Below, one piece after another: positions 13,006 through 61,182 of a stretch of DNA of 64,000 nucleotides. The stretch covers positions 11,732-75,731 of the forward strand of contig CACADH010000005.1 in the NCBI GenBank assembly GCA_902531245.1. The letters run 5' to 3'. Origin of the DNA: an uncultured SAR86 cluster bacterium (GTDB taxonomy: Bacteria > Pseudomonadota > Gammaproteobacteria > Magnimaribacterales > D2472). The notes under the pieces are model-generated. The model worked only from the letters and a program-made list of their open reading frames with translations. It was not told where the DNA came from and made no database searches. Position 1 is the stretch's first letter, and every line of letters starts with the position of its first letter. The position numbers were made by a program, and so were the translations under genes.

Positions 13006-13780
13006 TTTCGAAAAATGGCATGGCAATGGAAATGATTTTGTAATTATTAATTCAATTGAAGCCAAAACGAAGATAAGTAAAAACTTAATAACAAAAATAT
13101 CTGATCGAAATAAAGGAATTGGTTTTGACCAGCTTATAAATATCTGCCTTCCAACAAAGGATGATAAAGATTTTTTTATTAAATTTTTTAATGCTGATGG
13201 TTCGGAAGCCGGAATGTGTCTTAATGGTATTAGATGTGCATCAAGTTATATATGGAATAATGAATTTGCTCCAAAGAAAGCAATTAATATACAAACAAAA
13301 TCTAAAAATATTATTTGTACACCTGAAAAAAATAATATGGTCAGAGTTGCAATAGATTTTCCAGAAACTTTTGAAGGAAATAATCTTGATGCTAAAGTTA
13401 AAAATAAAATTAATGACGATTTTTTTATATTGAACGCAGGAAATAATCATCTTTGTATAAAAAAAGAATCTATAGAAAAAGTTAATTTAAATAAAATATA
13501 TAAAAAGCTAGAAGCCATCATTAAAAAATCAGAAATAAATTTATCAATTTTTAAAAAAAAAGATGGTCTGATTAATATAAGAACATATGAAAATGGTGTT
13601 GGAGAAACTTTATCATGTGGCTCAGCCTCATTATGTGTAGCTTCAAATTTCTTGTCTAAAGATGGTTTATCGGTGAAGACTAAGTCAATGGGTGGAGAAT
13701 TAGTCTTTAAAAAAACTGAAAATGTTATATTAATGTCAGGTCCAGCAAGTTATATATATAAGGGTTATATCAATGAGTAA
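12998..13780 (+). CDS. dapF: diaminopimelate epimerase
   Basis: 260 aa with KWHGNGNDF, NADGSEAGMCLNGIRC (first catalytic Cys) and GETLSCGSAS (second Cys). Confidence 0.9.
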   Translation: MIDFEKWHGNGNDFVIINSIEAKTKISKNLITKISDRNKGIGFDQLINICLPTKDDKDFFIKFFNADGSEAGMCLNGIRCASSYIWNNEFAPKKAINIQTKSKNIICTPEKNNMVRVAIDFPETFEGNNLDAKVKNKINDDFFILNAGNNHLCIKKESIEKVNLNKIYKKLEAIIKKSEINLSIFKKKDGLINIRTYENGVGETLSCGSASLCVASNFLSKDGLSVKTKSMGGELVFKKTENVILMSGPASYIYKGYINE

Positions 13781-14393
13781 AAAGTTAGATTCTAAAGAAG
13801 TAGAGCTATTCTTATTAGACAATCTAGATTTTTTTGAGGCTAGAGAGTCTTTAGTAAGTGAAATGAGTTTCAAACATTCATCAAGCTCCGCTTCATCTAT
13901 TCTTGAAAGACAGGTTAATAAATTAAGAGAAGATCATAAAAGTCTTATAAATATGCTTACTTCCTTTATGGAAACAGCATCTATTAATGAAGATCTTTTT
14001 AATAAGTCAAAAAATTTAACCCTTCAAATACTTGAATCAAGCACAAAAAAACAAATTATTGACAAGGTAGAAAACAGTTTTAATAAAGACTTTAAAGTAG
14101 ATAAGCCTTTGCTTAAATTTTATAAAAATAAAAAAATTGATGAGCTTGAAAAATCAACAGGGCTCTCTTTACATAAAGGGGCTATTTATTGTGGTTCTTT
14201 ATCATCTGAAAAGATGAATGTTCTTTTTAATGATAAGAAAATTGGATCAATGGTCGTTGCTGTTATAGTCGTGGGTGACGAAGTAGGCCTACTAATGCTT
14301 GGTAGTTTTGATAGATCAAAATATCTTGGAGATGAAGATACTACTTTTATTGAATATATTAGAGATGTTTTGGAGAAAAAATTAGCAAAATAA
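13773..14393 (+). CDS. DUF484 family protein (YigA-like)
   Basis: 206 aa. The N-terminal VELFLLDNLDFF resembles the YigA start. Its position between dapF and xerC is the conserved one. Confidence 0.7.
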   Translation: MSKKLDSKEVELFLLDNLDFFEARESLVSEMSFKHSSSSASSILERQVNKLREDHKSLINMLTSFMETASINEDLFNKSKNLTLQILESSTKKQIIDKVENSFNKDFKVDKPLLKFYKNKKIDELEKSTGLSLHKGAIYCGSLSSEKMNVLFNDKKIGSMVVAVIVVGDEVGLLMLGSFDRSKYLGDEDTTFIEYIRDVLEKKLAK

Positions 14394-14396
14394 TTT

Positions 14397-15293
14397 ATGA
14401 ACAATAATTCATTTATTCTTAACGATATAAAAGAATACTTGGTATTTGTGTCACAAGTTAAGAATCTTTCTGAAAATACTTCTAAGTCTTATGAAAGGGA
14501 CTTAAAAAAACTTGATTCATTTCTAAAAGATTTAAATATATCAAATTATTCACAAATTAATTCTGAAACTTGTTCTGCATGGATAGGAAGTCTATATTCT
14601 CAGAATAATAATCCTAGGAGCATCCAAAGACACTTATCATCAGCAAAAGGGTTTTTCAGATTTTTAAAAAAAAATAATCTAATAGATTCCTCACCTTTTG
14701 ATTTAGTTACAGCTCCTAAATCTTCTAGCAACTTACCAGAGGTTTTGTCACCAGAAGATGTTGAGCAACTCTTAAATTTTAAGCCAACAAATATGATAGA
14801 GATTAGGGACATGGCAATTGTAGAGCTTATGTATTCATCAGGATTAAGAGTTTCAGAAACAGTAAATATAAATATAAATGATTTTGAAGAGGATAAATCT
14901 TTCTTACGCGTTCTTGGAAAAGGTGCAAAAACTAGATTGGTTCCAATGGGTAGGTTTGCAATAAATGCAATTAATAATTGGTTAAAAGAAAGGGATAAGC
15001 TCCAAAGCAATACGGATGCTCTTTTTTTAAATGTTAAAGGAACAAGATTAACTGTAAGGAGTATTCAATTAAGGCTTAAAAAAATGGCTGTTAAACAAGG
15101 ACTTCCTCCGATTCATCCTCATATGCTAAGACATAGTTTTGCAACTCACATGCTTGAATCAAGTGGCGACCTCAGAACAATTCAAGAACTATTAGGTCAC
15201 AGCTCTTTATCCACAACACAAATTTATACTAAATTAGATTATCAACATCTTGCAAAGATTTATGATCAATCTCACCCTAGGGCTAAAAAATGA
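14397..15293 (+). CDS. xerC: site-specific tyrosine recombinase XerC
   Basis: 298 aa with an ARTR-type region, HPHMLRHSFATHML and LGHSSLSTTQIYT. The dapF-yigA-xerC-yigB synteny matches E. coli. Confidence 0.85.
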   Translation: MNNNSFILNDIKEYLVFVSQVKNLSENTSKSYERDLKKLDSFLKDLNISNYSQINSETCSAWIGSLYSQNNNPRSIQRHLSSAKGFFRFLKKNNLIDSSPFDLVTAPKSSSNLPEVLSPEDVEQLLNFKPTNMIEIRDMAIVELMYSSGLRVSETVNININDFEEDKSFLRVLGKGAKTRLVPMGRFAINAINNWLKERDKLQSNTDALFLNVKGTRLTVRSIQLRLKKMAVKQGLPPIHPHMLRHSFATHMLESSGDLRTIQELLGHSSLSTTQIYTKLDYQHLAKIYDQSHPRAKK

Positions 15294-15997
15294 TTAAGCA
15301 AATCAAAATGATAACTTTTGATCTTGATGATACCCTTTGGGACAACTATCCAACCATCATGAAAGCTGAAGTTGATACCAGAGAATGGATTGAAAATAAA
15401 GTTGGAGAAGTTGAATGGGGAGATTTTAATGACTTCATAAATCTTCGTGCTGATCTAATTAGAGAAGATGAAACTATAGAATGGGATATAAGTAAACTTA
15501 GAAAAGAGATTTTTAGAAAAAAACTTAGTCATGTCACTCCAGAGAATCTTAGAAACGAAATTGTAGATAAAGCTTTCGACATCTTCATTGAGAAAAGACA
15601 TGAAATCAAATTGTTTGATGGAGTTAAAGAGTCTATAAAGAACTTGTCAGAAAAATATATTTTAGGAATTCTAACTAATGGCAATGCAGATGTGTATAAG
15701 TTTGATATAGGTAAGTATTTTAAGTTTTCTATAAGTTCTCTTGAGGCAAAAGATAGCAAGCCAAATCGTGCTCACTTTGACATGGCAATTTCACGAGTCA
15801 ATAATATTTCATTCGATAATATTCTTCATATTGGCGACCATCAAATTAATGATATTTTTTGTGCATATAATCTTGGCATAGATACACTATGGTTTAATAA
15901 TAATAATGTTAGTTGGGCTCAAGATTTTAAAAAACCTGATGAATTTTCTTCTTGGCACGATTTGGAACAAATTATAAGAAATAAATATGAACGATAA
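15290..15997 (+). CDS. HAD-superfamily hydrolase, YigB-like
   Basis: 235 aa with HAD motif I ITFDLDDTLWDN and the later motifs LTNGN and IGDHQINDI. It follows xerC as yigB does in E. coli. Confidence 0.7.
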   Translation: MIKQIKMITFDLDDTLWDNYPTIMKAEVDTREWIENKVGEVEWGDFNDFINLRADLIREDETIEWDISKLRKEIFRKKLSHVTPENLRNEIVDKAFDIFIEKRHEIKLFDGVKESIKNLSEKYILGILTNGNADVYKFDIGKYFKFSISSLEAKDSKPNRAHFDMAISRVNNISFDNILHIGDHQINDIFCAYNLGIDTLWFNNNNVSWAQDFKKPDEFSSWHDLEQIIRNKYER

Positions 15998-31809: not shown

Positions 31810-32360
31810 TAAATTAATACCTTTAAGTCTTTTAAAATTAATTTAGGGTCTGTGTCTGGTAAAAAATACATAACCGCCCTTCCATATGGATCTATCACAA
31901 AAATTGGATTCTCCGCATTAAAGTCCAGTAATGAGTTTCTTTGTAAGACATTTAACAACACTCCATTTTTGTCTTCAACAACCTCAATTCGTGGATACTG
32001 CAATTTGATATCCTTTAAATTAGGTTCGAGCAATTTATTTGAATAAAATAAAACTCGTTTTAATTTATTTATGTCTCTGTTTAAAGCAACGTTTAATTGT
32101 CTTGCTAAGTAAATCGATTGTTCGCTAGTTTCGATGTTTGTAACATATACAGACAAAACCCATTTTCCATCTTCAAAACTTATTAAATCTTGTTTTCCTT
32201 CACCATTTTTAAAGTCATTTAAATCGAAATAACTTTTAAAAAAAACTCCATTGTTTTTTGTTCCCTCTGGTGACATTCCTTTTAGAAAATAAAGAGTTGA
32301 AAATGTAACAACCAGTATTGGCGTAAGTAGTAATACCGCTAAAAAAAATTTATTTCTCAT
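31809..32360 (-). CDS. conserved hypothetical membrane-anchored protein of the cox assembly cluster
   Basis: ORF track gives 31809..32393. ATG 32360 (MRNKFFLAVLLL..) gives a signal-anchor start and only an 11-nt overlap with SURF1. The C-terminal FVIDPYGRAVMYF resembles a thioredoxin/SCO-like fold segment. Function is unknown. Confidence 0.45.
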   Translation of the reverse strand: MRNKFFLAVLLLTPILVVTFSTLYFLKGMSPEGTKNNGVFFKSYFDLNDFKNGEGKQDLISFEDGKWVLSVYVTNIETSEQSIYLARQLNVALNRDINKLKRVLFYSNKLLEPNLKDIKLQYPRIEVVEDKNGVLLNVLQRNSLLDFNAENPIFVIDPYGRAVMYFLPDTDPKLILKDLKVLI

Positions 32361-33051
32361 TTCTTTTGAATCCATACCAAATATACATGACACATAAAAC
32401 TATAAACATTAAAAACCATTGTGCAGAATAACCATAATGTTTTATTGGTGTCATATTTGTTGGGTTAATTTTAATATATTCAAGACTATTTCTGCTTGTT
32501 GGATCTGCTAATAGAATAAATGGATATATTAGATCACTATATTCTTTTGAAATTACTTCTAAATTTTTGGTTTGTGAAACTTTTGGCCATACATCTGTAA
32601 CAAGTTCATCTGAAAGGGTGAGACCTAGCTCAGGTGACTCTAAGATTCCACTAACTCTTTCATTTGAATTTATTAGATCAATATTTGGAAGGACTTCTAT
32701 GTTTCTATTTCTTGGTATCCAGCCCCTGTCGATAAGAATAATCTCATTAGTATTTATTAGTTTAAAGGGTGTTAAAACTTTGTATCCGGCAATGCCTTTT
32801 CTAATAACATTATCGATTAATAATTGATTAGAGCCGTCCCATGATCCTTCAACATAAACTCTGTCCCATTTTTTAGAATCTTTACTTATATATCCTGGGC
32901 TTTTAAGTGAATTTTTTTCAAACTCATCTAATAAGACTGTCTTTGCTTGCCCTCTATCAATCTGCCATAGTCCTAAAGAAAAAAATAATACGGCAAAAAA
33001 AACAAAAAATATTGTGATTTTTATTCCAGGATTAAATTTATTTTTTTTCAT
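32350..33051 (-). CDS. SURF1 family cytochrome oxidase biogenesis protein
   Basis: 233 aa with N- and C-terminal TM helices, the GLWQIDRGQAK motif (SURF1 LGxWQxxR) and IDRGWIP. Confidence 0.75.
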   Translation of the reverse strand: MKKNKFNPGIKITIFFVFFAVLFFSLGLWQIDRGQAKTVLLDEFEKNSLKSPGYISKDSKKWDRVYVEGSWDGSNQLLIDNVIRKGIAGYKVLTPFKLINTNEIILIDRGWIPRNRNIEVLPNIDLINSNERVSGILESPELGLTLSDELVTDVWPKVSQTKNLEVISKEYSDLIYPFILLADPTSRNSLEYIKINPTNMTPIKHYGYSAQWFLMFIVLCVMYIWYGFKRNEK

Positions 33052-47348: not shown

Positions 47349-51061
<3,713 letters not shown>

Positions 51062-51062
51062 T

Positions 51063-52166
51063 TTAAATAAGAAGTGGCATTACAACATATTTTAAGTCAC
51101 TAGAATTGGGATCAGTAATTAGGCAGCTTTTTTCTGAACCAAAGAAATTAATCTCAATTTTCTCGGAATCTAATGTGGATAAAATTTCTTGTAAATAATT
51201 AACATTGAAAGCTATATCGATTTCTTCTCCCTGATATTCACATTCAACATTTTCTTCGCCCTGTTCTTTTTCTGGATTATTTGCAGAAATGTTTAAAGAG
51301 TTTTCTTTTGTTAAAATTCTCACCCCTTTGTATTTTTCACTCGATAACACACTAACCCTACTTAAACTTTCAGAGAAATTTTTTCTATCCACAACCAATA
51401 AAGAACTTTCACCCGACGGAATGACTTGTTCGTAATCAGGAAATTTACCTTCTATTAATTTGCTAACAAATGTGGTGCCAGAAACATTTGCTGCGATAGA
51501 CGTCTGTCCAAGTTTAATAACAACATTTTCGGAACCTTCTCCAACTAATTTTCCTATTTCATTGATTGACTTCCTGGGAACAATTCCATTCGTTGACTCA
51601 GAAACAGCTTCATTTAAAGAGGAGTGTGCTAAAGCTAATCTATGTGCATCTGTTGCAACAGTTGTTATAGTTTTGTCATCTATTAATAAAAAAAGTCCGT
51701 TTAAATAATGTCTCCAATCCTGATTTCCCATAGCAAATGCTGTTTTTGAGATTAAAGTCTTAAGATTTTGTGATGAAATGTTGATTTGAGATTGAGTTTC
51801 TTCTATTTCAAATACAGGAAAGTCCTCACTTGGTAGTGTTGAAAGGTTATATTTTCCCGATTCTGTTTCAATTCTGAGATTGTCTCCATCCAAAAAAAAG
51901 TGTATTTCAGTCATATCTGGTAATAATCTACATAAATCACTCAGTTTTCTTGCAGGAGCTGTTGTTTTTCCACCACTTTTAAAGTTAGATATGGTTGATG
52001 TTGTTGAAATTTCACTTTCTAGGTCTGTTGCGGTTAACTTTAAGGATGATTCATCCACCTCAAATAAAACGTTTGATAAAATTGGTAATGTTTGTCTTTT
52101 TTCAACAACTCCCAGGGTTTGATTTAAAGACTTAACAACCTCTTCTTTTGTGATATAAAAATCCAT
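51063..52166 (-). CDS. dnaN: DNA polymerase III beta sliding clamp
   Basis: 367 aa. N-terminal ..RQTLPILSNVLFEV and a C-terminal ..YVVMPLLI are typical of DnaN. It lies between dnaA and recF. Confidence 0.93.
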   Translation of the reverse strand: MDFYITKEEVVKSLNQTLGVVEKRQTLPILSNVLFEVDESSLKLTATDLESEISTTSTISNFKSGGKTTAPARKLSDLCRLLPDMTEIHFFLDGDNLRIETESGKYNLSTLPSEDFPVFEIEETQSQINISSQNLKTLISKTAFAMGNQDWRHYLNGLFLLIDDKTITTVATDAHRLALAHSSLNEAVSESTNGIVPRKSINEIGKLVGEGSENVVIKLGQTSIAANVSGTTFVSKLIEGKFPDYEQVIPSGESSLLVVDRKNFSESLSRVSVLSSEKYKGVRILTKENSLNISANNPEKEQGEENVECEYQGEEIDIAFNVNYLQEILSTLDSEKIEINFFGSEKSCLITDPNSSDLKYVVMPLLI

Positions 52167-53458
52167 TAGTTTGTTAGTGCTCTATTTAGATTTCTGTAAT
52201 CTTCTTCGTGGGATGGGTTCTCTTTTCTAAGTTCTTTAATTTTTTTACATGCGTGCAAAACTGTTGTGTGATCCCTTCCATTATAAGCCTCGCCAATTTC
52301 TGGTAAGCTATGATTTGTAAGCTCTTTTGTTAGCGCCATTGCCATTTGTCTTGGTCTTGTTATGGATCTGCTTCTACGTTTAGATAACAAATCTGATAAC
52401 TTAATGTTGTAATATTCTGCTACTGTTTTTTGGATGTTTTCTACGCTTACCATTTTTGCAGAAATTACAAAAAGATCTTTAAGTGCATCCTTAACAAGAG
52501 CTAAATCAACCTCTTGGTTTGTAAACCTTGCATTGGCAACAACCCTTTTAAGGGCTCCTTCTAATTCTCTAATGTTCGATCTGATTCTTTGTGCAATATA
52601 AATCGCGCAGTCATTAGGAAGAGAGACTCCCATTGAAGAAGCCTTTTTTAATAAAACTGCAGCTCTAGTCTCAAGCTCTGGGGGATCAATGACAACCGGG
52701 AGGCCCCAACCAAGTCTTGATTTTAATCTTTCCTCTAATCCATCAATTTCTTTTGGGTATTTGTCGCAAGTCAATATCATTTGATTGTTTCTATCTAATA
52801 ATGCATTAAATGTGTGAAAAAACTCTTCTTGGGATTGTTCTTTTCCAGCAAAAAACTGTATGTCATCAATTAAAAGAGCATCGGCATTTCTATAAAAAGA
52901 TTTAAACTCACTCATCGCTCCAAGCTGCAGAGCTTTTACCATATCTGAAACAAACTTTTCTGAGTGAACGTAAACGATTCTTTTTTTGGGTTCGTTCTTT
53001 AAGATTTGATTTCCAACTGCGTGCATAAGGTGGGTTTTTCCCAAGCCTACGCCCCCATAAATAAACAACGGGTTATAGTCTCCCTTTGGGTTCGCAGCAA
53101 CCTGTTTTGCTGCAGCTAAAGCTAAGTGGTTGGATTTGCCCTCAACAAAACTTGAAAATGTATAACCTTCAACAAGCTTAGCTCCAGAGCTTTGTTTGTT
53201 TTTGTATTTATCAACAAATGTTTCTTTTGTGTGAGTTTTAAAAACTAAATTTATGTTTATTTTAGATTCGGTTTTTAAAATAGACTTTATATCTTTTGCA
53301 TAATTTTTTTCTATGTAATCTAATATAAAATCGTTTGGGGCGACTAACTCCAAAGTATTTTTATCAATGCTTGCCTTAAGAGGCCTAATCCAGGTATTGA
53401 AATCTTCTTGCGACAGTTTATTTTCAAGCTTTTCTGAGCACTTATTCCAAAGTTCCAA
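52166..53458 (-). CDS. dnaA: chromosomal replication initiator protein DnaA
   Basis: 430 aa with Walker [22 protein letters not shown] and a C-terminal DNA-binding region [14 protein letters not shown]. The apparent TTG start is preceded by AGGAGAAAGAA. Confidence 0.95.
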
Positions 53459-53531
53459 TTCTTTCTCCTATTAGACTGATAGTCTATTAAAAAACTCACA
53501 AGATATCTACAGAATAAATATACGAATTTTC

Positions 53532-53540
53532 TGTGGATAA
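53532..53540 (-). promoter_or_regulatory. DnaA box (perfect TTATCCACA on the minus strand)
   Basis: The + strand reads TGTGGATAA, the reverse complement of consensus TTATCCACA. It lies 74 nt upstream of the dnaA start. Confidence 0.65.
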
Positions 53541-53601
53541 GTTGTATATAAAAAAAATTATTTTTTATAGTCTATTTTCTGGCTTTCAAAAATTAATGCG
53601 C

Positions 53602-53607
53602 TATAAT
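53602..53607 (+). promoter_or_regulatory. possible -10 element for rpmH-rnpA
   Basis: A perfect TATAAT sits 30 nt upstream of the rpmH ATG. I see no convincing -35 at 16-18 nt spacing. Confidence 0.25.
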
Positions 53608-53636
53608 TCTCATCACTTTTTGACCTTAATTTTATT

Positions 53637-53771
53637 ATGAAAAGAACTTTTCAACCAAGCAACCTTAAAAGAAAAAGAACACATGGGTTTCGAGCAAGAA
53701 TGGCCACCAAGGCAGGAAGGGCTATTTTGTCTAATAGAAGAAAAAAAGGTAGGAAAGTTCTTAGCGCATAA
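53637..53771 (+). CDS. rpmH: 50S ribosomal protein L34
   Basis: Absent from the ORF track (44 aa). [44 protein letters not shown] is a near-canonical L34 sequence. Confidence 0.95.
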
Positions 53772-53772
53772 T

Positions 53773-54090
53773 TTGTCTGGTTCAAGTAAAAAATTTAATT
53801 CTTTTAATTGTATTTATTCAAGTAAAAATTTCAGGCTTTTTTATAAACCATCATCAAAAAGCGGTTTAGAGATTTCAATATCAAAAAAATATTTTAGGTT
53901 GGCTGTAAAAAGAAATAAAATAAAAAGACAGGTAAAAGAAATTTTTAGGTCTCTTAATATTGTTATTCCAAGTGATGGGGTTGTTATTTTTTCTGTATTT
54001 AGGCCTTTTGGGGAGTTATCATATGAAAAAGCTTTGTTAGAGGTTGATGAGGCGGTAAAGTCATTGTCGGGTGATTTAAGTTTAAAATGA
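53773..54090 (+). CDS. rnpA: ribonuclease P protein component
   Basis: It carries the RNR motif region LAVKRNKIKRQVKEIFRS. The TTG at 53773, 1 nt after the rpmH stop, gives 105 aa with N-terminal spacing similar to E. coli RnpA. The ORF-track ATG at 53683 lies inside rpmH in another frame. Confidence 0.8.
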   Translation: MSGSSKKFNSFNCIYSSKNFRLFYKPSSKSGLEISISKKYFRLAVKRNKIKRQVKEIFRSLNIVIPSDGVVIFSVFRPFGELSYEKALLEVDEAVKSLSGDLSLK

Positions 54091-55631
54091 ATATTAGAAG
54101 CATTTATTTAATTGTTATTGTTTTGTCGTCGCTTGGTCTTTTGTATGAGTGGAACTCTGATCAAAAAAACCAGTCTATTGAAAATCATTTGTCATCTGTT
54201 AAATCGTCTGAATATCTACAAAATCCTGATTATGTTTCAATAGAAAATGATTTGCTTTCGTTGGTTGTTTCTGTTTCTGGTGGGTCTATTGTTGAATCGA
54301 GATTGAAGGAATATCCTGTAGAAAATGTTGATGGTTCTGTCGGTTTTAGGGTGTTTGGTTCTTCTGAAAGCTCTTCTTTTAAGTATTATTTTAAAAGTGG
54401 TTTTACTGGGGTTGTTCCAGAATATCGGCTTTATGATCTAGGGGATGGGTATGTTGAGTTAGTAGATGAAGGTCTGGGTGTTTCAAAAAGAATATCTTTT
54501 TCAGCCGTGCCTTATGAGGTTTCTGTTTATGATTCCTCGTCTTCAGGAATAAAAGGCAAATCTTATGCTGGTCTTTACAGGTCAGATGGTAAGGCCCTTG
54601 ATTTAAAAAGAGGTGCTCTAGAGGGTGGGATGATGAACAATAGCTCCTACGAAGGTGTTGCTATCAGCTCTGAGTCAGACCCCTACACAACATCAAGATT
54701 AAGTAGAATAGATGAGCCTGTCGAGGTGTTATCAAGGTCGGGGTGGATTGGTTTTGTTCAAAAATATTTCTTCGCTGCTCTTTTGGGTTCGGATGAGCAT
54801 ATATACAACTATTATGTTTTACCAAAAGAATCTGGGTTTTTTAGAATGGGCTACACTGTTGAGGGGTCGTCCGCCTCTAATGTGGTTTATGGTCATGAGC
54901 ACAGACTTTTTGTTGGGCCTAAAATAAGGAAAGATTTGATGCAACGGGCGGATAATTTGGAGCTTGCTATTGATATGGGTTGGTTTTGGTTTTTAGCACA
55001 ACCAATGGTTTTTGTGATGGATTTTATAAATGGTTATGTTAATAGTTGGGGCCTAACAATTATTATTTTTACTCTTTTTATTAAGCTTTTGTTTTGGCCT
55101 GTGACCGCAAAAAGCTTTAAGTCTATGGCCGCTCTGAGAAAAATAACGCCGGAATTGAACGAAATAAAAGAAAGATTTAAAAACGATCGCCAAAGCCAGG
55201 GCACTGAAACCATGAGGTTGATGAAGAAACACGGAGCAAATCCTTTGGGTGGCTGTTTGCCGTTGTTAATTCAAATGCCATTTTTTATTGGTTTCTTTTT
55301 TGCATTGAGGGAGATGGTAGAGCTTAGGTTTAGCACCTTGGGTTTTTGGGCGGATCTTTCAGCACCAGACCCATATTTTATTTTACCTGCCGCCTTTGGT
55401 TTGTTAATGGTTTTAACTCAAAGGTTAAATCCGCAGCCAGCTGGTATGGATCCGACTCAGGCCCAGGTTATGAAATATATGCCTGTTATGTTTTCTGTTT
55501 TCTTTTTGTTTTTTCCAGCCGCTCTTTGTTTGTATACGGTTGTAAACACCGGAGTACAACTTGCGCAGCAGAGTTACTTATACAAAAAACATGGTGCTTT
55601 AGGAATGGGTCACGGGCCTAGTGCGGGTTAG
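54087..55631 (+). CDS. yidC: membrane protein insertase YidC
   Basis: 514 aa with an N-terminal TM helix plus periplasmic domain. The conserved C-terminal core includes NPLGGCLPLLIQMPFF and DPYFILP. There is an ATGA overlap with rnpA. Confidence 0.93.
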   Translation: MNIRSIYLIVIVLSSLGLLYEWNSDQKNQSIENHLSSVKSSEYLQNPDYVSIENDLLSLVVSVSGGSIVESRLKEYPVENVDGSVGFRVFGSSESSSFKYYFKSGFTGVVPEYRLYDLGDGYVELVDEGLGVSKRISFSAVPYEVSVYDSSSSGIKGKSYAGLYRSDGKALDLKRGALEGGMMNNSSYEGVAISSESDPYTTSRLSRIDEPVEVLSRSGWIGFVQKYFFAALLGSDEHIYNYYVLPKESGFFRMGYTVEGSSASNVVYGHEHRLFVGPKIRKDLMQRADNLELAIDMGWFWFLAQPMVFVMDFINGYVNSWGLTIIIFTLFIKLLFWPVTAKSFKSMAALRKITPELNEIKERFKNDRQSQGTETMRLMKKHGANPLGGCLPLLIQMPFFIGFFFALREMVELRFSTLGFWADLSAPDPYFILPAAFGLLMVLTQRLNPQPAGMDPTQAQVMKYMPVMFSVFFLFFPAALCLYTVVNTGVQLAQQSYLYKKHGALGMGHGPSAG

Positions 55632-55633
55632 TT

Positions 55634-56950
55634 GTGTCAACGGTATTTGCTTTAGCTACTCCGCCAGCTAAATCAGCAATATGTGTTTTTAGGGTTTCGG
55701 GTCCTGGATGTCACAAACACCTTAAAAAGTTAATTAAAAATAAAAATTTCGATATTGGTCAATTTCATGTCAGGGGTTTTTTTTATAACGATGTTTTGAT
55801 TGATAAGGCCGGTCTTGTGGTTTTTAAAGGGCCTAACAGCTATACAGGTGAAGATTCTTTTGAGGTCTATGCTCATGGAAGTTTGGGGGTTATGTCTTCT
55901 TTTATTAAGTCTTTCAAGGGTGTGGGTTTTGAAGAGGCGGTTGGTGGAGAGTTTACCAAGCGTGCTTTTTTAAACAATAAAATTAGTTTAAATGAGGCTG
56001 AATCTGTTGCAGATTTGATTGATTCCGTGGATGAGGTTGGTGTCACTTTGTCTGGCGGTTCTCTGTTTGGTGAGATGTCTAAAAATATTGTTGTTTTTGC
56101 TGATGAGTTGGATCAGATAAGAGTAAGGGTTGAGGTGGAAATAGATTTTTCTGATGAAGGCCTTGAGTATATGGATGAGTCTATTGTTAATGATATAAGC
56201 AAATTAAAAAATAGATTTGATCTTTTTGTGGGTGGTTGTGTAAATAAAAAAGTTTGTTCACAAAAAAACAATGTTTTGTTGGTTGGCCCTGTTAATTCTG
56301 GTAAATCGTCTGTTTTTAATCGCTTGCTTGGTTTTGAAAGGGCGTTGGTTTCCAGTGTTCCTGGAACGACTAGGGATATTGTCAGTAGTGAGTTGTTTTA
56401 TGAGTCTTCTTCATTTTCTATTTTTGACTCTGCTGGTTTGAGGGACACCTCAGATGTTGTTGAAAAAGCTGGTATAGAGCTTTCTTTGTCTGAAATTAAT
56501 CAGGCCGATTTGGTGGTTGGGGTTTTTGAAGAAAATGATATTGCGTTGATAAAAAGATTTAAAGGTTTGTGTGGTGATGTGCCTTTTGTTTCTGTTCAAA
56601 ATAAAATAGATATTAATCCTTTGTTTGATAATAATGTTTTTGATTGTTGTGTTTCTGCAAAGACTGGTGAGGGTTTTGATGTTTTAAAGGGTTTGGTTGT
56701 TTCTAGGTTTAAAAAGGGAATTAAAAAAGAAGATTATAAATACATAGTAAGAGATAGGCATGAAAATTTGTTTAAATCTGTTGTTGATGCTTTAGACCAA
56801 GTTTTAAATAATTTAAATAATGGTGAGTCTTTAGAGCTTGTTGCAGAAGATCTTAAGATTGCTAGGGGTTTTTTGGATGAGTTAGTGGGTAGGAAGTTTT
56901 CCGATTCTTTGCTTGGGGATATATTTAATAATTATTGTATTGGTAAGTAG
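55634..56950 (+). CDS. mnmE: tRNA uridine-5-carboxymethylaminomethyl modification GTPase MnmE
   Basis: 438 aa with a GTG start, ALATPPAKSAICVFRVSG, a G domain GPVNSGKSS / DSAG / NKID and the C-terminal CIGK motif. Confidence 0.93.
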   Translation: MSTVFALATPPAKSAICVFRVSGPGCHKHLKKLIKNKNFDIGQFHVRGFFYNDVLIDKAGLVVFKGPNSYTGEDSFEVYAHGSLGVMSSFIKSFKGVGFEEAVGGEFTKRAFLNNKISLNEAESVADLIDSVDEVGVTLSGGSLFGEMSKNIVVFADELDQIRVRVEVEIDFSDEGLEYMDESIVNDISKLKNRFDLFVGGCVNKKVCSQKNNVLLVGPVNSGKSSVFNRLLGFERALVSSVPGTTRDIVSSELFYESSSFSIFDSAGLRDTSDVVEKAGIELSLSEINQADLVVGVFEENDIALIKRFKGLCGDVPFVSVQNKIDINPLFDNNVFDCCVSAKTGEGFDVLKGLVVSRFKKGIKKEDYKYIVRDRHENLFKSVVDALDQVLNNLNNGESLELVAEDLKIARGFLDELVGRKFSDSLLGDIFNNYCIGK

Positions 56951-57164
56951 ATAACCTGTTAGTTTTTTGTTGTTTTTTTTATGGTTTTTTTTTAGTTAAC
57001 AGTTTGTTAACTGTTATTTAAAGTGAGTCAATTATAGTTATACAGCTTTTATAATCAGCAGAATTCCTTAATGGGAGAGGAAAATAAACACTTATAAACA
57101 AAAAAATCAAACCTAATAGAAATAACAAAAAGTATATAATATAGATATTATTGTTTAATTATTT

Positions 57165-59012
57165 ATGTATAAATTCGATGTAATTGTTGTGGGCGCTGGT
57201 CATGCAGGTGTTGAGGCTGCTTATGCTGTAGACAGAATGGGACTCTCATGCGCCCTAGTTACCTTTGATCTAAAAACAATAGGTCAAATGTCGTGCAACC
57301 CAGCAATAGGAGGACTAGGTAAATCACATATTGTAAGAGAGATCGAAGCAATGGGAGGTTTGATGCCCATCGCAACAGATATGTCAGGCATTCAATATAG
57401 AACACTTAACACAAGAAAGGGAGATGCAGTTCAAGCTTTGAGGGTTCAATGTGACAGAGATCTTTATAAAAAAGCTGTTCAAAAAATTCTTAAAAAAACA
57501 AACATAGAAATTATCGAGGATGAGGTAATTGACCTTATAACAAACAAAAAAACAGTTAAAGGCGTTATTACAAACAAGTATAAAATATCAGCAAAAAGAA
57601 CAATCTTAACAACCGGAACTTTTTTAAACGGTAAGATGTATACAGGAGATGAGGTAACGCCTGGGGGGAGAGCTGGTGACGGTTCTGCAATACCGCTTTC
57701 AGAAAAACTCTATAGTTTAAATATCCCAATGGGAAGATTGAAAACAGGAACACCAGCAAGAATAAAACTATCAAGCATCAATTTAAACAAAATGGAAGAA
57801 CAACCCGGCGAAAAACCAACCCCCTGGATGTCTCTTTACAACAGACCCAAAAAACACCAAAAACAACTATCTTGTTTCATAACAAGAACCAACAAAAAAA
57901 CCCATCAAATAATAGAAAAAAACACACACCTTTCCGCAATGTATTCGGGAAACATAGTTGGAATTGGTCCTAGGTATTGCCCCTCAATTGAAGACAAAGT
58001 AAATAAATTTAAAAATAAAGAAAGCCACCAGATATTTATTGAACCAGAAGGAATCAACAAAGACCTCGTTTACCCAAACGGAATATCAACAAGCCTCCCA
58101 AAAAAAGCACAAGAGAGTTTTGTTTATTCAATAAAAGGACTAGAGAATGCCAATATCACCGAGTATGGCTATGCTGTTGAGTACGACTTCATAGACCCAA
58201 GAAACATAAAACAAACCCTAGAAACAAAATTTTTCAAAAATTTTTACTTAGCTGGACAAATTAACGGGACCACCGGCTATGAAGAAGCGGCGGCACAGGG
58301 GCTCATGGCAGGAGTTAACGCAACAAGGTCGATACAAAAAAAAACAGAGGTTGTTTTAGAGAGAAGCGAAGCTTATATAGGAGTATTAATAGACGATCTC
58401 ACAAACCACGGAATAACCGAACCATATAGAATGTTTACAAGCAGAGCAGAACACAGACTCCTTTTATCACAAAACAACGCCGAACAAAGATTACTGCTTA
58501 AAGCTTTTGACCTAGGCCTGATTGAAAAAAACAGAAAAACAGAATACGTAAAAAAAGAACACGAATACAAAGAGTTTGTAAAAAACACCCTGAAAAAAAC
58601 AAAAATTAAGTCTTTTATAAACAACAAAAATGAGAAAATTGATTTACCAGAGAAAAAAGACATCACCGAATTGCTTAAGAGAACAGATATAAACAACAAA
58701 AAAATCTATAAAACAAAAACAAACGAAAAAAAGTTTTTTGAAAGAGCAGCAAGGGAAGCAAAATACGAAGGATATATTGAAAAACAACTAAGAGAAATCA
58801 AAAAAACAAAAAAACAAAACAAGAAAAAAATACCACCAAACCTTAACTACTCAAACATAGCCGGGCTTTCTAATGAAGTAAAAGAAAAACTCACAAATCA
58901 CAAACCAGAAACAATTGGTATGGCCTCAAGACTTGAGGGCGTAACCCCAGCAGCGGTTAATCTAATACTAATACAATTGAAAAAAAACGAGCTGCAAAAA
59001 CAAAATGCATAA
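57165..59012 (+). CDS. mnmG: tRNA uridine 5-carboxymethylaminomethyl modification enzyme MnmG (GidA)
   Basis: 615 aa with an FAD motif [33 protein letters not shown] and [17 protein letters not shown]. Confidence 0.95.
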
Positions 59013-59592
59013 CCTGTTCACAAAAGAACAAAATGAAAAAATATCCACATTTATAGATCTCGCACTAGAATTTAACAAAACACACAATATTTTTTCGAGA
59101 ACAGACAACCAAGAGGTTTTTTATAAAGACATTCTTGATTGCCACCCAATAATCCAATATTTAAAAAAGGAAAAAACGGCCCTAGACCTTGGGTCTGGAG
59201 GGGGTTTCCCAGGCATTCTTTTATCAATAACAAAACCAAAAAACAAAATATATTTAATAGAAAGCAGTGCTAAAAAATGCTATTTCTTGAGGTCCGCTGT
59301 CGACAAACTTTCTTTAAGCAACACAACCATAATTAATAAAAAGATAACCACAAACAACACCCTTGGCACATTCGACATCATTACTGCAAGAGCCTTTGCA
59401 AGCATAAAAAACATAATAGACCTAACTCAAAACAATACAAACAACAAATCCAAATATGTTTTACTAAAAGGTAAAAAGAAAACCATAAAACAAGAATTAA
59501 AAGACATAAACAAAAACACTCACATATATGAAATAATTAAACAAGAGCTTGGTCCTGAAGAAAGGCATGTGGTTTTGATAAGAGAAAAATGA
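59005..59592 (+). CDS. rsmG: 16S rRNA (guanine527-N7)-methyltransferase RsmG (GidB)
   Basis: 195 aa with a SAM motif [16 protein letters not shown] and ITARAFA. It follows mnmG. Confidence 0.85.
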
Positions 59593-60350
59593 ATAAAATA
59601 ATAGCAATTGCAAACCAAAAAGGAGGAGTTGGCAAAACAACAACAGCAGTTAACCTTTCAGCAAGCCTTGCAGCAACAAAAAGAAAGGTTCTCTTAATTG
59701 ATATGGACCCCCAAGGAAATGCTAGCACTGCAGCAGGCATTCTAACAGAGGACCCAAATACGCTTTACAGCCATTATTTTGATGCCACCCCAATCGAAGA
59801 TTGCACATACTCAAGCAAAGACGGATACGACATCATCCCTGGGGGTGAAGAGTTAATTGCGCTTGAGGTTTCAATTAGAAACGACAACAAACAAGGGTTT
59901 CTTTTGAAAAGCTTAGAAGGAGTTTCTAATAAATATGACTACACAATTATTGATACACCCCCAACATTAAATCAACTAACAATAGAGGGTCTTTTTTGTG
60001 CGTCTGGAACGCTAATACCACTCCAGTGTGAGTATTATTCATTGGAAGGGGTTACTGGTCTTATGACAACCATTCAAACACTTTCAGACAAAAACATGTC
60101 ATCTAACAGGGTTATTGGTATTGTAAGAACAATGGTTGATATGAGAAACAACCTAGCAAAAGAGGTTTCTGATGAGCTGGAAAAGCACTTTAAGAATTTA
60201 GTTTTTAATACACTAATACCAAGAAATGTAAAACTGGCGGAGGCCCCCAGCCATGGAATATCTGGTATAAAATATATGCCAAACTCTTACGGTGCTAAGG
60301 CTTATTTAGCCCTGGCTGGTGAGGTAATTAGAAAGGTGGAGTATGCCTGA
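59589..60350 (+). CDS. parA: chromosome partitioning ATPase ParA (Soj)
   Basis: 253 aa with the deviant Walker A IANQKGGVGKTTTAVNL, DMDPQGNAS and IIDTPP. Confidence 0.9.
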   Translation: MNKIIAIANQKGGVGKTTTAVNLSASLAATKRKVLLIDMDPQGNASTAAGILTEDPNTLYSHYFDATPIEDCTYSSKDGYDIIPGGEELIALEVSIRNDNKQGFLLKSLEGVSNKYDYTIIDTPPTLNQLTIEGLFCASGTLIPLQCEYYSLEGVTGLMTTIQTLSDKNMSSNRVIGIVRTMVDMRNNLAKEVSDELEKHFKNLVFNTLIPRNVKLAEAPSHGISGIKYMPNSYGAKAYLALAGEVIRKVEYA

Positions 60351-61182
60351 AGACAAAAAAACATTAAACAAAGGACTAGATGCTTTGTTGGGTCAATCAA
60401 ATACAAACCAAAGAGCGGTAAAAGAAATTGACCTAAACAAAATAAAACCAGGAAGATTCCAACCAAGATCAAATTTTGATAAAGAAAAACTGGAAGAACT
60501 AACAGCTTCGATAAAAAACCAAGGAGTGTTATCTCCAATCTTAGTAAGAGAGCTCGGCTTAAATGAATATGAGGTTATTGCAGGAGAAAGAAGATTAAGG
60601 GCCTCAAAAATGGCTAAACTAAAAACAATCCCATGTTTGGTCGACCAAAAACAAGACCAAGATGCGTTGGTATCCGCCCTTATAGAAAACTTACAAAGAG
60701 AAGATCTTAACCCTGTAGAGGAGGCAAGAGGCCTAGACAGATTAAAAAGAGAGTTTGGTCTAACCCAAGAAGAGGTTGCTATTTCTACAGGAAAGGCTAG
60801 AAGCACTATAGCAAATTCCTTGAGGTTATTATCTCTTCCACCCAGGGTTCTGGATATGCTTTCGGCTGGGCAAATTGAAAAAGGGCACGCCAAACTCCTT
60901 GCATCCCTTGATCCAGAAGAGGCGGAAAAAGCAGCCGAAAATATTATAAAAAACAAACTTAGCGTAAAAGATCTAAACAAACTATCAAACCATAAAAAAA
61001 CATCTAAAAGTGCTAATAAAAACAACAAAGACACAGATATTTTAAATATAGAGCAAGAGATGTCTGGAGATTTTGGGCATAAGATAGAAATAGAATCAAA
61101 AAATAAAAAAAGCGGCAAAGTAAGTATTTTTTATAAGACCCTAGATGAGCTTGATATTATTATTTCAAAACTAAAAAAGTAA
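60343..61182 (+). CDS. parB: chromosome partitioning protein ParB (Spo0J)
   Basis: 279 aa with QPRSNFD, GVLSPILVR, VIAGERRLRAS (ParB box) and an HTH region LTQEEVAISTGKARSTIANSLRLL. Confidence 0.9.
   Translation: MPEDKKTLNKGLDALLGQSNTNQRAVKEIDLNKIKPGRFQPRSNFDKEKLEELTASIKNQGVLSPILVRELGLNEYEVIAGERRLRASKMAKLKTIPCLVDQKQDQDALVSALIENLQREDLNPVEEARGLDRLKREFGLTQEEVAISTGKARSTIANSLRLLSLPPRVLDMLSAGQIEKGHAKLLASLDPEEAEKAAENIIKNKLSVKDLNKLSNHKKTSKSANKNNKDTDILNIEQEMSGDFGHKIEIESKNKKSGKVSIFYKTLDELDIIISKLKK

Follow-up and report, generated by a model that had tools for sequence, protein, structure and literature searches.

Results

Mirror-image composition blocks on either side of the mnmE–mnmG spacer

What makes the composition of one strand flip twice across a run of genes that all lie on that strand? 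The question is raised by a locus within a 64,000-nucleotide stretch of DNA (hereafter, the window) from a SAR86 gammaproteobacterium. We calculated keto skew, defined as (G+T−A−C)/N on the + strand, in 1-kb windows and found that it peaks at +0.306 (56,001–57,000) in a left block and at −0.334 (58,501–59,500) in a right block. The 217 windows outside 53.4–61.3 kb have a mean of 0.006, a standard deviation of 0.060, and a range of −0.166 to +0.148, placing the peaks at z = +5.0 and −5.6, ≈5 standard deviations outside the rest of the 64-kb window. This sliding-window check, proposed in the original prediction, confirms the observation of two mirror-image strand-composition blocks, and the seven 60-nt base counts reported there were all reproduced exactly. 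The predicted polarity, G+T-rich on the left and A+C-rich on the right, was also correct; it is convergence-like under the usual rule, which has G and T enriched on the leading strand, where an excess of G over C is near-universal.

The left block (53,637..57,050, + strand) comprises rpmH (53,637–53,771), rnpA (to 54,090), yidC (54,087–55,631), mnmE (55,634–56,950), and the left part of the mnmE–mnmG spacer, and its + strand is G+T-rich. The spacer itself (56,951..57,164, no strand assigned) measures 214 bp. The core of the right block (57,300..59,950, + strand), with an A+C-rich + strand, includes mnmG (57,165–59,012) after its first ≈150 nt, rsmG (59,005–59,592), and the first ≈0.4 kb of parA. 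It is followed by a tail (59,951..61,182, + strand) containing the remainder of parA, weakly skewed here, and parB; the mnmG-rsmG-parA-parB operon has overlapping stop and start codons.

Keto skew at third codon positions reaches +0.34 in yidC, +0.49 in mnmE, −0.35 in mnmG, −0.37 in rsmG, and −0.25 in parB, compared with a mean of 0.037 (standard deviation, 0.074) for 56 other genes of the window. Fourfold sites give +0.59 for mnmE, −0.34 for mnmG, and −0.24 for parB, with parA hardly skewed (−0.08 to −0.11). The composition of these sites is A.40, C.10, G.07, T.43 in a typical window gene, A.12, C.09, G.13, T.67 in mnmE, and A.50, C.17, G.08, T.25 in mnmG; the G+T-rich strand carries half the usual A and about twice the usual G. 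At dnaA (52,166..53,458, − strand), which opens the left flank, + strand fourfold keto skew is just +0.07, and the flanks are weakly skewed overall, at +0.045 ± 0.015 on the left (1–48 kb) and about −0.07 on the right. Within ≈3–4 kb of the switch, block skew (0.35–0.5) is ≈5–8 times flank skew (0.05–0.1).

The shift reaches codons and amino acids, as predicted, with first and second codon positions and amino acid content dragged along with the fourfold skew. Residues G, V, F, C, and W make up 0.26 to 0.30 of MnmE, versus 0.19 to 0.21 in outgroups, and K, N, T, P, Q, and H make up 0.38 to 0.39 of RsmG, versus 0.265. The listed shadow ORFs exist, none has a Pfam match, and they are, as predicted, a by-product of the composition.

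Conservation and extent of the blocks

Comparison with related genomes, another suggested check, revealed both blocks in every SAR86 species with a DnaA 75 to 95% identical to that of the window, and in at least 57 SAR86 species, making them lineage-wide. The samples comprise single-cell genomes, short-read and long-read metagenome-assembled genomes, and independent metagenome contigs, including L089, L091, and L092, which also show the profile. Gene order is colinear throughout. On deeper SAR86 branches, the blocks are weaker and graded, and the left skew fades ahead of the operon start; locus L072 lacks them. Other SAR86 lineages have skews of −0.27 to −0.32 in parA and −0.24 to −0.41 in parB. 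None of 25 other gammaproteobacteria sharing the mnmG-rsmG-parA-parB-atp order has the blocks; their mnmG and rsmG skews fall around 0 to +0.1, and genes farther downstream give +0.05 to +0.2. Escherichia coli lacks the blocks as well, its mnmG standing at +0.32. Unlike SAR86, these organisms show the ordinary sign without a local zone. MnmE is just 40% identical between groups and synonymous sites are saturated between clades, yet the skew persists. It differs little between conserved and variable codons, and no polar k-mer or motif accounts for it. The skew acts on DNA in general and is not a property of these genes.

To define the block edges, we pooled the fourfold sites of 57 species by position relative to the mnmE–mnmG spacer. 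Skew rises at about −3.3 kb, the position of the rnpA start and the dnaA–rpmH spacer. The abrupt edge inside rnpA at 53,940 in the original prediction therefore did not hold up; it appears abrupt because a Lys/Arg-rich RnpA motif (AAA/AGA codons) lies just before it. From +0.3 at −3.2 kb, the left block climbs to between +0.45 and +0.59 adjoining the spacer. The right core ranges from −0.15 to −0.43 and ends at about +2.9 kb, and beyond it a weak tail of −0.05 to −0.1 continues to at least +20 kb. The right block had been drawn to ≈61.04 kb in parB; parB is indeed skewed again in the pooled profile (−0.2 to −0.33 at its 3′ end), but parA in the window barely is. The blocks had also been said to meet in the mnmE–mnmG spacer, which is where the substitution pattern flips (see below), but fourfold sites change sign ≈250 nt right of the spacer center, or ≈150 nt into mnmG, with the change building over ≈700 nt. 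In noncoding DNA, the sign changes ≈70% of the way through the spacer, the left half of which is more G+T-rich than the right half in 64 of 64 species.

Recent substitutions are strand-asymmetric about the spacer

We counted recent changes among close SAR86 species by parsimony, which gives approximate numbers. A>G and T>C substitutions show a twofold asymmetry that flips at the mnmE–mnmG spacer only, with ln(A>G/T>C) between +0.3 and +0.7 in each of the 13 one-kb bins left of it and between −0.3 and −0.8 in each of the six to its right. This asymmetry is independent of gene orientation, and the A>G excess lies on the strand that runs 5′ to 3′ toward the spacer. Because the excess runs through both flanks, it belongs to each chromosome half and not to the blocks.

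What changes at the left block is the C>T component: ln(C>T/G>A) is negative in 10 of 10 left-flank bins and positive in three of three left-block bins. In the left flank, this asymmetry opposes and nearly cancels the A>G excess, for a net skew of ≈0.05 to 0.1. In the left block, it changes sign along with A>T versus T>A, and all asymmetries then push together: the G+T-rich strand shows an excess of A>G, C>T, and A>T (with A>G and C>T raised and G>A and T>A lowered), which drives fourfold sites to about +0.4. On the right side, where the block stands at about −0.35, the C>T/G>A ratio on this scale is near zero and does not tell block and flank apart; their substitution ratios are statistically equal, though their compositions differ. 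The deamination-like amino-to-keto change proposed in the original prediction thus agrees with the A>G excess on the G+T-rich strand, and its C>T part with the left block only.

The equilibrium keto skew implied by these counts is +0.22 ± 0.04 for the left block, −0.21 ± 0.05 for the right block, and +0.05 for the near left flank, indicating that the skew-producing process is ongoing. Observed composition is more extreme than this equilibrium, a gap of the kind expected from parsimony bias. The synonymous substitution rate is 0.06 to 0.10 everywhere and is not raised in the blocks, so any extra damage would be a redistribution rather than a large addition. These data show that a strand-asymmetric substitution process, mirror-symmetric about the spacer, is operating now in all these lineages; they cannot separate mutation bias from selection.

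Origin-like features of the mnmE–mnmG spacer

The gene context around the spacer (dnaA-dnaN-recF-gyrB, rpmH through parAB, atp, and glmUS) is one that we take to match Vibrio cholerae chromosome 1. The left flank includes the origin-proximal genes xerC-dapF, engB, and cytochrome c4-dsbA, and ≈95% of genes on the right side are codirectional over 20 kb. A parS-like palindrome, TGTTCCACGTGGAACT (49,995..50,010, no strand assigned), tags the region as origin-proximal, and the same site (≤2 mismatches) occurs at about −7 kb from the mnmE–mnmG spacer in nearly all of 65 SAR86 loci.

The original prediction placed the origin in the dnaA–rpmH spacer (53,459..53,636, no strand assigned), which carries the dnaA and rpmH promoters and forms the left boundary of the left block. 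This spacer contains a perfect DnaA box, TTATCCACA (53,532–53,540, − strand), and exact TTATNCACA occurs 75 times in 65 such spacers versus 0.9 expected. It is not the point of the replication-polarity switch, however, because the A>G/T>C asymmetry has one sign on both sides of it.

The sign flip and oriC features coincide instead at the mnmE–mnmG spacer, which on its sequence is most probably an oriC of the E. coli/Vibrio type, beside mnmG (gidA). Spacer length is kept at 200 to 240 bp in ≈60 species, and the minimal E. coli oriC is 245 bp. A reverse DnaA box position at 56,957–56,965 reads TGTTAGTTT in the window and TGTGGGTAA or TGTGAATAA in relatives; a forward position at 56,993–57,001, after a T-run, reads TAGTTAACA in the window and TTATCCACA in loci L044 and L046; and a further forward box, TTATAAACA, lies at 57,092–57,100. 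A conserved 82% A+T stretch with TATAAT (57,113–57,164) adjoins mnmG. Exact DnaA boxes number 27 across the spacers versus 1.2 expected, and 157 versus 28 with ≤1 mismatch. Their positions are conserved in the alignment, with opposite orientations at the two ends. As in E. coli and Vibrio, then, the candidate origin lies between an mnmE-side operon and mnmG, with opposed end boxes and an AT-rich mnmG side that abuts the mnmG promoter. It differs in lacking mioC and a GATC cluster (two GATC in 64 spacers), in its relaxed boxes (TTATNAACA is common), and in the opposite sign of its skew switch. Under these assignments, the blocks most probably extend ≈3.3 kb left and 3 to 4 kb right of the origin. 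The interpretation offered in the original prediction is, overall, partly supported.

Discussion

We propose that the blocks are zones adjoining the chromosomal replication origin, most probably the mnmE–mnmG spacer, and we favor exposure or error-prone copying of the leading-strand template as their cause, a reading to which we give about an even chance. An origin at the spacer would make the G+T-rich strand the template of the leading strand to either side, reversing the usual bacterial rule. We infer that the excess exposure or error-prone copying would occur during fork establishment. Over the first few kilobases, the leading-strand template may remain single-stranded longer than the lagging-strand template, if the helicase gains a lead that the leading strand, whose primer comes from the opposite fork, closes only later. 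Or the same template might be copied or recopied near the origin by less accurate synthesis. Either route would produce deamination-type amino-to-keto changes on the leading-strand template that decay with distance from the origin. An abundant marine lineage would then carry, beside its probable origin, an extreme mirror-image bias of sign opposite to the bacterial rule that reshapes the encoded proteins.

Several observations run against this proposal. The sign contradicts the rule that G exceeds C on the leading strand, and the weak skew of the flanks is signed in the same unusual way, leaving two options: an exception to the rule at this locus or an origin located elsewhere. Simple symmetric initiation would expose both templates about equally, and the extra leading-strand delay must be assumed. 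The blocks also roughly coincide with the operons rpmH–mnmE and mnmG–parB, so transcription may contribute.

Replication-associated asymmetry (GC and AT skew, Lobry's rule) is strong in, for example, Borrelia, where it shapes codon and amino acid usage. The SAR86 pattern is likewise mirror-symmetric about a replication switch point at neutral sites and arises from asymmetric substitution rates that spill into codon and amino acid usage, but its sign is reversed if the spacer is oriC, with G and T enriched on the leading-strand template. In vertebrate mitochondria, A>G and C>T changes accumulate on the heavy strand, which is single-stranded during strand-displacement replication, in a gradient set by exposure time. 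SAR86 similarly shows amino-to-keto change on one strand, with A depleted, G and T enriched, proteins affected, and a gradient that depends on position relative to the origin. Unlike mitochondria, it has two mirror zones of just ≈3 kb on a bacterial chromosome, its total synonymous rate is not raised, and its single-strandedness is inferred. Eukaryotes establish the leading strand near the origin by having Pol delta extend the opposite fork's first lagging-strand primer until synthesis catches up with the helicase (PMC6344338, PMC6728351), which may offer, by analogy, a precedent for an origin-flanking zone where treatment of the leading-strand template departs from that in the bulk. The eukaryotic replisome is different, and no compositional footprint on such a scale is known for this process.

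Selection on base composition, rather than mutation bias, could in principle maintain the blocks, but we consider this unlikely. It might keep origin-side single strands or mRNAs structure-free, or preserve a polar protein–DNA or Rho–RNA interaction; neither an A+C-rich strand nor its G+T-rich complement can self-pair. SAR86 population size is very large, so weak selection could act, and some left-block changes resemble a fixation bias to G and T. Composition beyond the implied equilibrium and the unraised synonymous rate also fit selection. However, the first of these is expected from parsimony bias, mirror polarity is not needed to avoid secondary structure, and the altered amino acids of core proteins would be costly. 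The lack of a polar motif that explains the skew and its similarity at conserved and variable codons argue further against selection.

Transcription favors G+T excess on the coding strand, and positive GC skew is linked to R-loops. We see a slim chance that exposure of the nontemplate strand, for example in R-loops, formed the blocks through transcripts running toward the origin on both sides, namely rpmH–mnmE mRNA in the left block and, in the right block, RNA antisense to parB–mnmG. The left block, with its coding-strand G+T excess from the rpmH promoter region to the operon end, is as transcription-associated asymmetry predicts, and the right block approximates the mnmG-rsmG-parA-parB operon. 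The right block, however, has the opposite sign with the same direction of transcription, and every annotated gene there is transcribed from the G+T-rich strand. No support emerged for the earlier suggestion of a second initiation zone or antisense promoter near 61 kb: promoter-like matches number 29 versus 28.5 in shuffled sequence, and the sequence considered as an antisense promoter at the edge of the block consists of synonymous sites that vary freely. Among highly expressed genes, those of atp and ahcY lack comparable skew, our estimate of the coding-strand effect within the window is near 0, and the A>G/T>C asymmetry ignores gene orientation.

We find it very doubtful that the spacer is instead a terminus-like site of fork convergence with ordinary polarity, its leading strand G+T-rich and its ≈3-kb zones representing the last Okazaki-length of lagging-strand template, which would stay single-stranded until the second fork arrived. 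Both GC and keto skew, in blocks and flanks, would then have the sign of the standard rule, and the A>G excess would fall on the lagging-strand template, where Lee and colleagues reportedly observed such an excess in 2012 in mismatch-repair-deficient E. coli lines. The 1- to 3-kb scale and the shape, with a central maximum and an abrupt end, suit an Okazaki-sized gap. The surroundings are nonetheless those of a canonical origin, from the flanking genes and parS to the DnaA boxes and AT-rich element, and we know of no bacterium with a terminus beside dnaA and parAB. Moreover, the atp operon, glmUS, and ≈95% of right-side genes would be head-on to replication, the left-flank C>T asymmetry is signed as for forks leaving the spacer, and a search for a dif-like site found none.

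A protein or codon requirement, such as the hydrophobicity of YidC or a codon preference linked to tRNA modification by MnmE and MnmG, is scarcely credible. YidC is a membrane protein, which favors T at second codon positions, and other membrane-protein genes in the window reach ±0.14 to 0.17, but the effect is strongest at fourfold sites, extends to rnpA, rsmG, parB, and noncoding spacer DNA, and is missing from orthologs in other gammaproteobacteria and E. coli; the fourfold sites and the outside orthologs refute this explanation. Least probable of all, to the point of being negligible, is an artifact or leftover (an assembly chimera, import by recombination from a skewed relative, or an old inversion not yet equilibrated), for which solely the abruptness of the blocks in one window viewed alone would speak, and which is refuted by their spread over species and sequencing technologies in colinear loci, their persistence despite synonymous saturation, and their regeneration by recent substitutions.

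Strand composition around the mnmE-mnmG spacer

The original prediction held that the window contains two abutting, mirror-image composition blocks, the left one (from within rnpA through yidC and mnmE) rich in G+T on the + strand and the right one (mnmG, rsmG, parA and parB) rich in A+C. Its seven 60-nt base counts were all reproduced exactly, and in 1-kb windows the block peaks of keto skew, (G+T-A-C)/N, lie outside the normal spread of the rest of the window. On the + strand, the skew peaks at +0.306 at 56.0-57.0 kb and reaches a trough of -0.334 at 58.5-59.5 kb, whereas the 217 windows outside 53.4-61.3 kb have a mean of 0.006 and an sd of 0.060 and all fall within -0.166 to +0.148, with their extremes in membrane-protein genes whose second codon positions are T-rich. 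Pfam searches confirmed the gene identities.

Third-position keto skew, scored against the 56 other genes of the window (mean 0.037, sd 0.074), is +0.34 in yidC (z = +4.1), +0.49 in mnmE (z = +6.1), -0.35 in mnmG (z = -5.2), -0.37 in rsmG (z = -5.5) and -0.25 in parB (z = -3.9), with parA at -0.08 (z = -1.6). Fourfold-degenerate sites have a composition of A.40 C.10 G.07 T.43 in an ordinary window gene, A.18 C.11 G.18 T.53 in yidC, A.12 C.09 G.13 T.67 in mnmE and A.50 C.17 G.08 T.25 in mnmG. On the G+T-rich strand, the main effect is that A falls by half and G doubles, with T also up, and fourfold GC content rises from 0.18 to 0.26-0.31 in the blocks. Across the left 48 kb of the window, the + strand carries a G+T excess of 0.045 ± 0.015 that is independent of gene strand, so the weak flank skew shares the sign of the adjacent block; the coding-strand term of keto skew in the window is approximately 0. 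Outside the blocks, the most extreme gene is one at 32350-33051 (- strand), with a coding-strand fourfold keto skew of -0.34 over 82 sites, few enough that this value may be sampling noise.

We pooled fourfold sites from 57 species, with zero at the center of the mnmE-mnmG spacer (56951..57164, 214 bp; center at window position 57058). From dnaA through gyrB and further out (left of -3.5 kb), + strand keto skew is about +0.05 to +0.1; at ≈-3.2 kb, at the rnpA start just right of the dnaA-rpmH spacer (53459..53636), it jumps to +0.3, and it rises to +0.45 to +0.59 adjoining the mnmE-mnmG spacer. The first ≈200 nt of mnmG remain at +0.12 to +0.16, the zero crossing lies at ≈+250, and values of -0.15 to -0.43 follow from +0.3 to +2.9 kb (mnmG, rsmG, and the first 0.4 kb of parA). 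The skew is then about -0.1 from +3.0 to +3.7 kb, -0.2 to -0.33 at the parB 3' end, and about -0.05 to -0.1 beyond parB to at least +20 kb, a distance reached by only about 10 SAR86 contigs from a metagenome scan with AtpD. Over the range -57 to +20 kb, the amplitude is therefore not constant within a chromosome half, being 0.35-0.5 within 3 kb and 0.05-0.1 beyond. Within the non-coding spacer itself, all 64 species have a left half richer in G+T than the right, with the skew changing at ≈70% of the spacer length. The sharp left edge originally placed within rnpA proved to be a Lys/Arg-rich RnpA motif preceding a block that begins at the operon start.

The shadow open reading frames (ORFs) that had been attributed to the composition exist and match no Pfam family. 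They arise because T depletion of the + strand takes stop codons off the opposite strand, and they could be mis-annotated by gene callers; one antisense example within parB (60393-61118, - strand; no Pfam match) spans 241 aa. At the left end, rpmH is a 44-codon gene (53637-53771), and the listed rnpA ORF (53683-54090) starts within it in another frame. Its RNase P Pfam match begins only at residue 45, and the real rnpA start probably lies further downstream than 53683.

Conservation of the blocks among SAR86 species

A DnaA-based scan with one genome per species yielded 80 loci whose DnaA proteins are 95% down to 57% identical to that of the window, nearly all labeled SAR86 or unclassified Gammaproteobacteria, plus two short contigs with Flavobacteria labels. 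After reorientation to match the window, both blocks were found in identical genes in every species with DnaA identity of 75-95%, making them lineage-wide over that range. Among the sources are single-cell genomes, metagenome-assembled genomes from both short and long reads, and metagenome contigs obtained independently. In deeper SAR86 branches (≈60% DnaA identity), the blocks are weaker and fade with distance, and they are absent from a non-SAR86 gammaproteobacterium (L072). Gene order is colinear across ≈65 loci from independent assemblies. The suggestion that the blocks reflect an assembly chimera or recombinational import does not survive this comparison: they are not confined to one assembly, no gene-order breaks occur in the ≈65 loci, and the recurrence of the same blocks across species with colinear gene order removes both a chimera and recent import as explanations. 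Exact-protein look-ups aimed at sequence beyond the window returned no record for DnaA, MnmG, ParA or DnaN, and AtpH on short contigs only.

The AtpD scan recovered mostly non-SAR86 gammaproteobacteria, which we used as controls. In 25 such contigs carrying mnmG-rsmG-parA-parB-atp, coding-strand fourfold keto skew of mnmG and rsmG is near 0 to +0.1, and the genes downstream are at +0.05 to +0.2, the ordinary sign. Beside the annotated oriC of E. coli K-12, mnmG (+0.32) and rsmG (+0.20) resemble neighboring genes. The fourfold sites, together with these gammaproteobacterial and E. coli controls, refute a cause in protein sequence or codon usage.

Ongoing substitution asymmetry

We aligned eight groups of close species (84-97% identical within a group) and scored singleton differences with the majority base as the original state and the singleton base as the derived one. 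The fourfold synonymous rate is equal inside and outside the blocks (0.06-0.10 per site and lineage), and the blocks are not hypermutated. At third positions on the + strand, ln(A>G/T>C) is +0.3 to +0.7 left of zero in 13 of 13 one-kb bins (out to -13 kb) and -0.3 to -0.8 right of zero in 6 of 6 bins (out to +6 kb). The sign flips exactly at the mnmE-mnmG spacer, not at the dnaA-rpmH spacer, and is shared by genes on either strand. This asymmetry is of the replication type and is a property of each chromosome half rather than of the blocks; composition and A>G/T>C both switch strand at the putative origin.

In other substitutions the left block differs from its flank. The ln(C>T/G>A) values are -0.01 to -0.4 in 10 of 10 left-flank bins, opposing the A>G asymmetry, and +0.1 to +0.3 in 3 of 3 left-block bins; on the right they are near zero, compatible with a mirror image and individually not significant. 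For A>T/T>A, the left block has a ratio of 1.58 and the right block one of 0.67, as against ≈1 in the left flank. Equilibrium keto skews implied by these substitutions, which parsimony pulls toward zero, are +0.22 ± 0.04 in the left block (observed, +0.39), -0.21 ± 0.05 in the right block (observed, -0.34), -0.17 ± 0.04 in the right flank (observed, -0.11) and +0.05 in the near left flank (observed, +0.06). The blocks are therefore being maintained at present, and the lineages concerned have replaced their synonymous sites many times over. Multi-species occurrence and recent substitutions together refute an artefact, an import or an old inversion.

The mnmE-mnmG spacer as a candidate oriC

From its sequence and context, the mnmE-mnmG spacer is very probably the replication origin. 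It is intergenic, adjoins mnmG, and lies within the conserved order dnaA ... rpmH-rnpA-yidC-mnmE, then mnmG-rsmG-parAB-atp, which matches the order around V. cholerae oriC1, minus mioC. Its length is 200-240 bp in about 60 species, in streamlined SAR86 genomes where most genes abut. Alignment reveals conserved elements at fixed positions, with boxes oppositely oriented at the two ends. Directly after the mnmE stop codon is a reverse DnaA box (TGTGGGTAA, TGTGAATAA, TGTTATTAA), followed by a T-run and then a forward box (TTATCCACA in loci L044 and L046, TTATTCACA, TTATCAACA; TAGTTAACA in the window), a forward box (TTATNAACAGAA; TTATAAACA at 57092 in the window), and a conserved 82% A+T stretch with TATAAT adjoining mnmG. 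This mnmG-side stretch of 70 nt, a possible DNA-unwinding element, also resembles an mnmG promoter, and no 13-mer repeats were identified in it. Across 64 spacers, exact TTATNCACA occurs 27 times versus 1.2 expected, and with at most one mismatch 157 times versus 28.4 expected; the window spacer has only one box at this threshold (57092-57100). A short inverted repeat in the window spacer (56995-57014; TAACAGTT-tgtt-AACTGTTA), overlapping the second DnaA-box position, may act as the mnmE terminator or belong to the origin.

The 64 spacers contain only 2 GATC sites and hence no Dam-site cluster; such clusters at origins are specific to Dam-containing lineages. The dnaA-rpmH spacer (160-187 bp) has one or two boxes (75 exact versus 0.9 expected), and DnaA boxes are common in dnaA promoters. 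Between -13 and +6.5 kb, the only conserved DnaA-box clusters are those of the two spacers; as for a third cluster at the right edge, the peaks in question (+1.0, +2.8 and +5.2 kb) are conserved coding motifs. A parS-like palindrome, TGTTCCACGTGGAACT, at the recF 3' end (49995-50010) is conserved ≈7 kb to the left of the spacer in almost all of 65 SAR86 loci. The left flank carries genes found near the origin in other gammaproteobacteria (dapF-DUF484-xerC, engB, and cytochrome c4-dsbA), and nearly all genes in the right 20 kb, including atp and glmUS, are directed away from the spacer. The cluster of dapF, DUF484, xerC and a HAD hydrolase gene (12998-15997) resembles E. coli dapF-yigA-xerC-yigB. 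Because XerC is encoded, a dif site should lie elsewhere in the genome; the window holds one chance-level dif-like match only, distant at 19326. Transfer RNA and Rfam scans of the window gave no matches.

Discussion

We class the SAR86 zones, which are real and conserved, as a replication-associated strand asymmetry of unexpected sign and scale, whose mechanism we can only infer. In the blocks and the flanks on either side, the strand that runs 5' to 3' outward from the spacer is A+C-rich, the reverse of the standard sign seen in the controls. With the spacer as origin, the leading-strand template on either side would be the G+T-rich strand, whose 3' end faces the origin, and the classical rule would be reversed. 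The best-supported description is that SAR86 has two replication-linked asymmetries that nearly cancel in the left flank, the side that could be resolved, and reinforce each other over the ≈3-4 kb next to the origin. In this description, the reinforcement comes from a change of side by the C>T asymmetry, along with A>T, and this change is significant only on the left.

Both C>T and A>G are typical of DNA that is single-stranded, which suggests that close to the origin the leading-strand template is more exposed, or less accurately copied, than the other strand. We tentatively suggest, as a possibility rather than a probability, that the zones are a footprint of fork set-up, in which the leading- and not the lagging-strand template is chronically exposed or poorly copied for ≈3-4 kb each side of oriC. 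The helicase would move ahead of the leading strand, itself primed from the opposite fork, and its lead would leave a footprint decaying with distance from the origin; such decay is clearest in the deep SAR86 branches. Under a simple symmetric model of initiation, the two templates would be exposed to nearly the same degree; the proposal therefore has to assume an added delay at the start of the leading strand, and the unchanged synonymous rate limits the amount of extra damage.

Selection on base composition is an unlikely source of the blocks. No motif was found: among polar oligomers of k = 4-6, none exceeds the prediction from base composition save for Lys-codon and Shine-Dalgarno effects, and a secondary-structure argument does not demand mirror polarity. 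The skew is present in conserved and variable codons alike, with no consistent difference. Transcription or R-loops, which would fit the left operon, are quite improbable, since the right block would require strong antisense transcription and has the sign opposite to the G+T-rich coding strand expected, and since the atp genes and ahcY display no comparable effect and the coding-strand term is negligible. The promoter scan offers no evidence of such transcription, promoter and terminator matches over 53-62 kb being at chance level. One - strand promoter-like match exactly at the right-block edge (59975-59946) consists of codons for Ile-Ile and Asn-Gln, and the synonymous positions of these codons differ freely from species to species. 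Fork convergence at a terminus-like spacer would render the sign ordinary and account neatly for an Okazaki-sized zone, but it is very improbable, being at odds with the DnaA boxes, parS, synteny and gene orientation.

A fork-set-up footprint, if true, would mean that the classical skew rule is reversed locally, and perhaps more widely, and that the composition of core proteins (YidC, MnmE, MnmG, RsmG and ParB) has been rewritten; the zone width would give the distance over which the leading-strand polymerase catches the helicase, in a hard-to-culture organism. If mutational, the asymmetry is a natural record of strand-specific events at initiation, a step that is difficult to follow in vivo and, to our knowledge, has so far been out of reach in uncultured oligotrophs. 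Strand skew is a textbook mutational asymmetry and the standard computational marker of bacterial origins. Throughout this abundant marine order, the strongest skew signal coincides with the probable origin and has the wrong sign. Cumulative GC skew would give a local maximum where a minimum is expected, and skew-based origin finders and analyses that read fork direction from skew would be misled in SAR86. Our full-text literature search found no description of the feature in SAR86, nor of origin-flanking reversed-skew zones in bacteria.

The block proteins depart from their outgroup counterparts in the directions expected. Between the window and the representatives of its nearest species (L001-L006 and L063), DnaA is 94-95% identical, MnmE 67-71%, MnmG 76-77%, RsmG 59-61% and RnpA 54-60%, with nucleotide identity over 19 kb of only about 75%. 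The block proteins are thus much more diverged than DnaA, yet the synonymous rate within other clades is not raised, and the extra divergence may be a product of compositional drag. A force acting locally on the DNA is able to alter the amino-acid make-up of highly conserved housekeeping proteins, which is relevant to marker-gene phylogenies built on block genes. The skew may also extend past the core SAR86 set: a 405-kb metagenome contig (L116; ERZ651776 NODE-2, GC 0.40), whose MnmG is only 50% identical to that of the window, has weaker negative fourfold skews of -0.15 in mnmG, -0.24 in rsmG and -0.27 in parA, versus -0.01 downstream.
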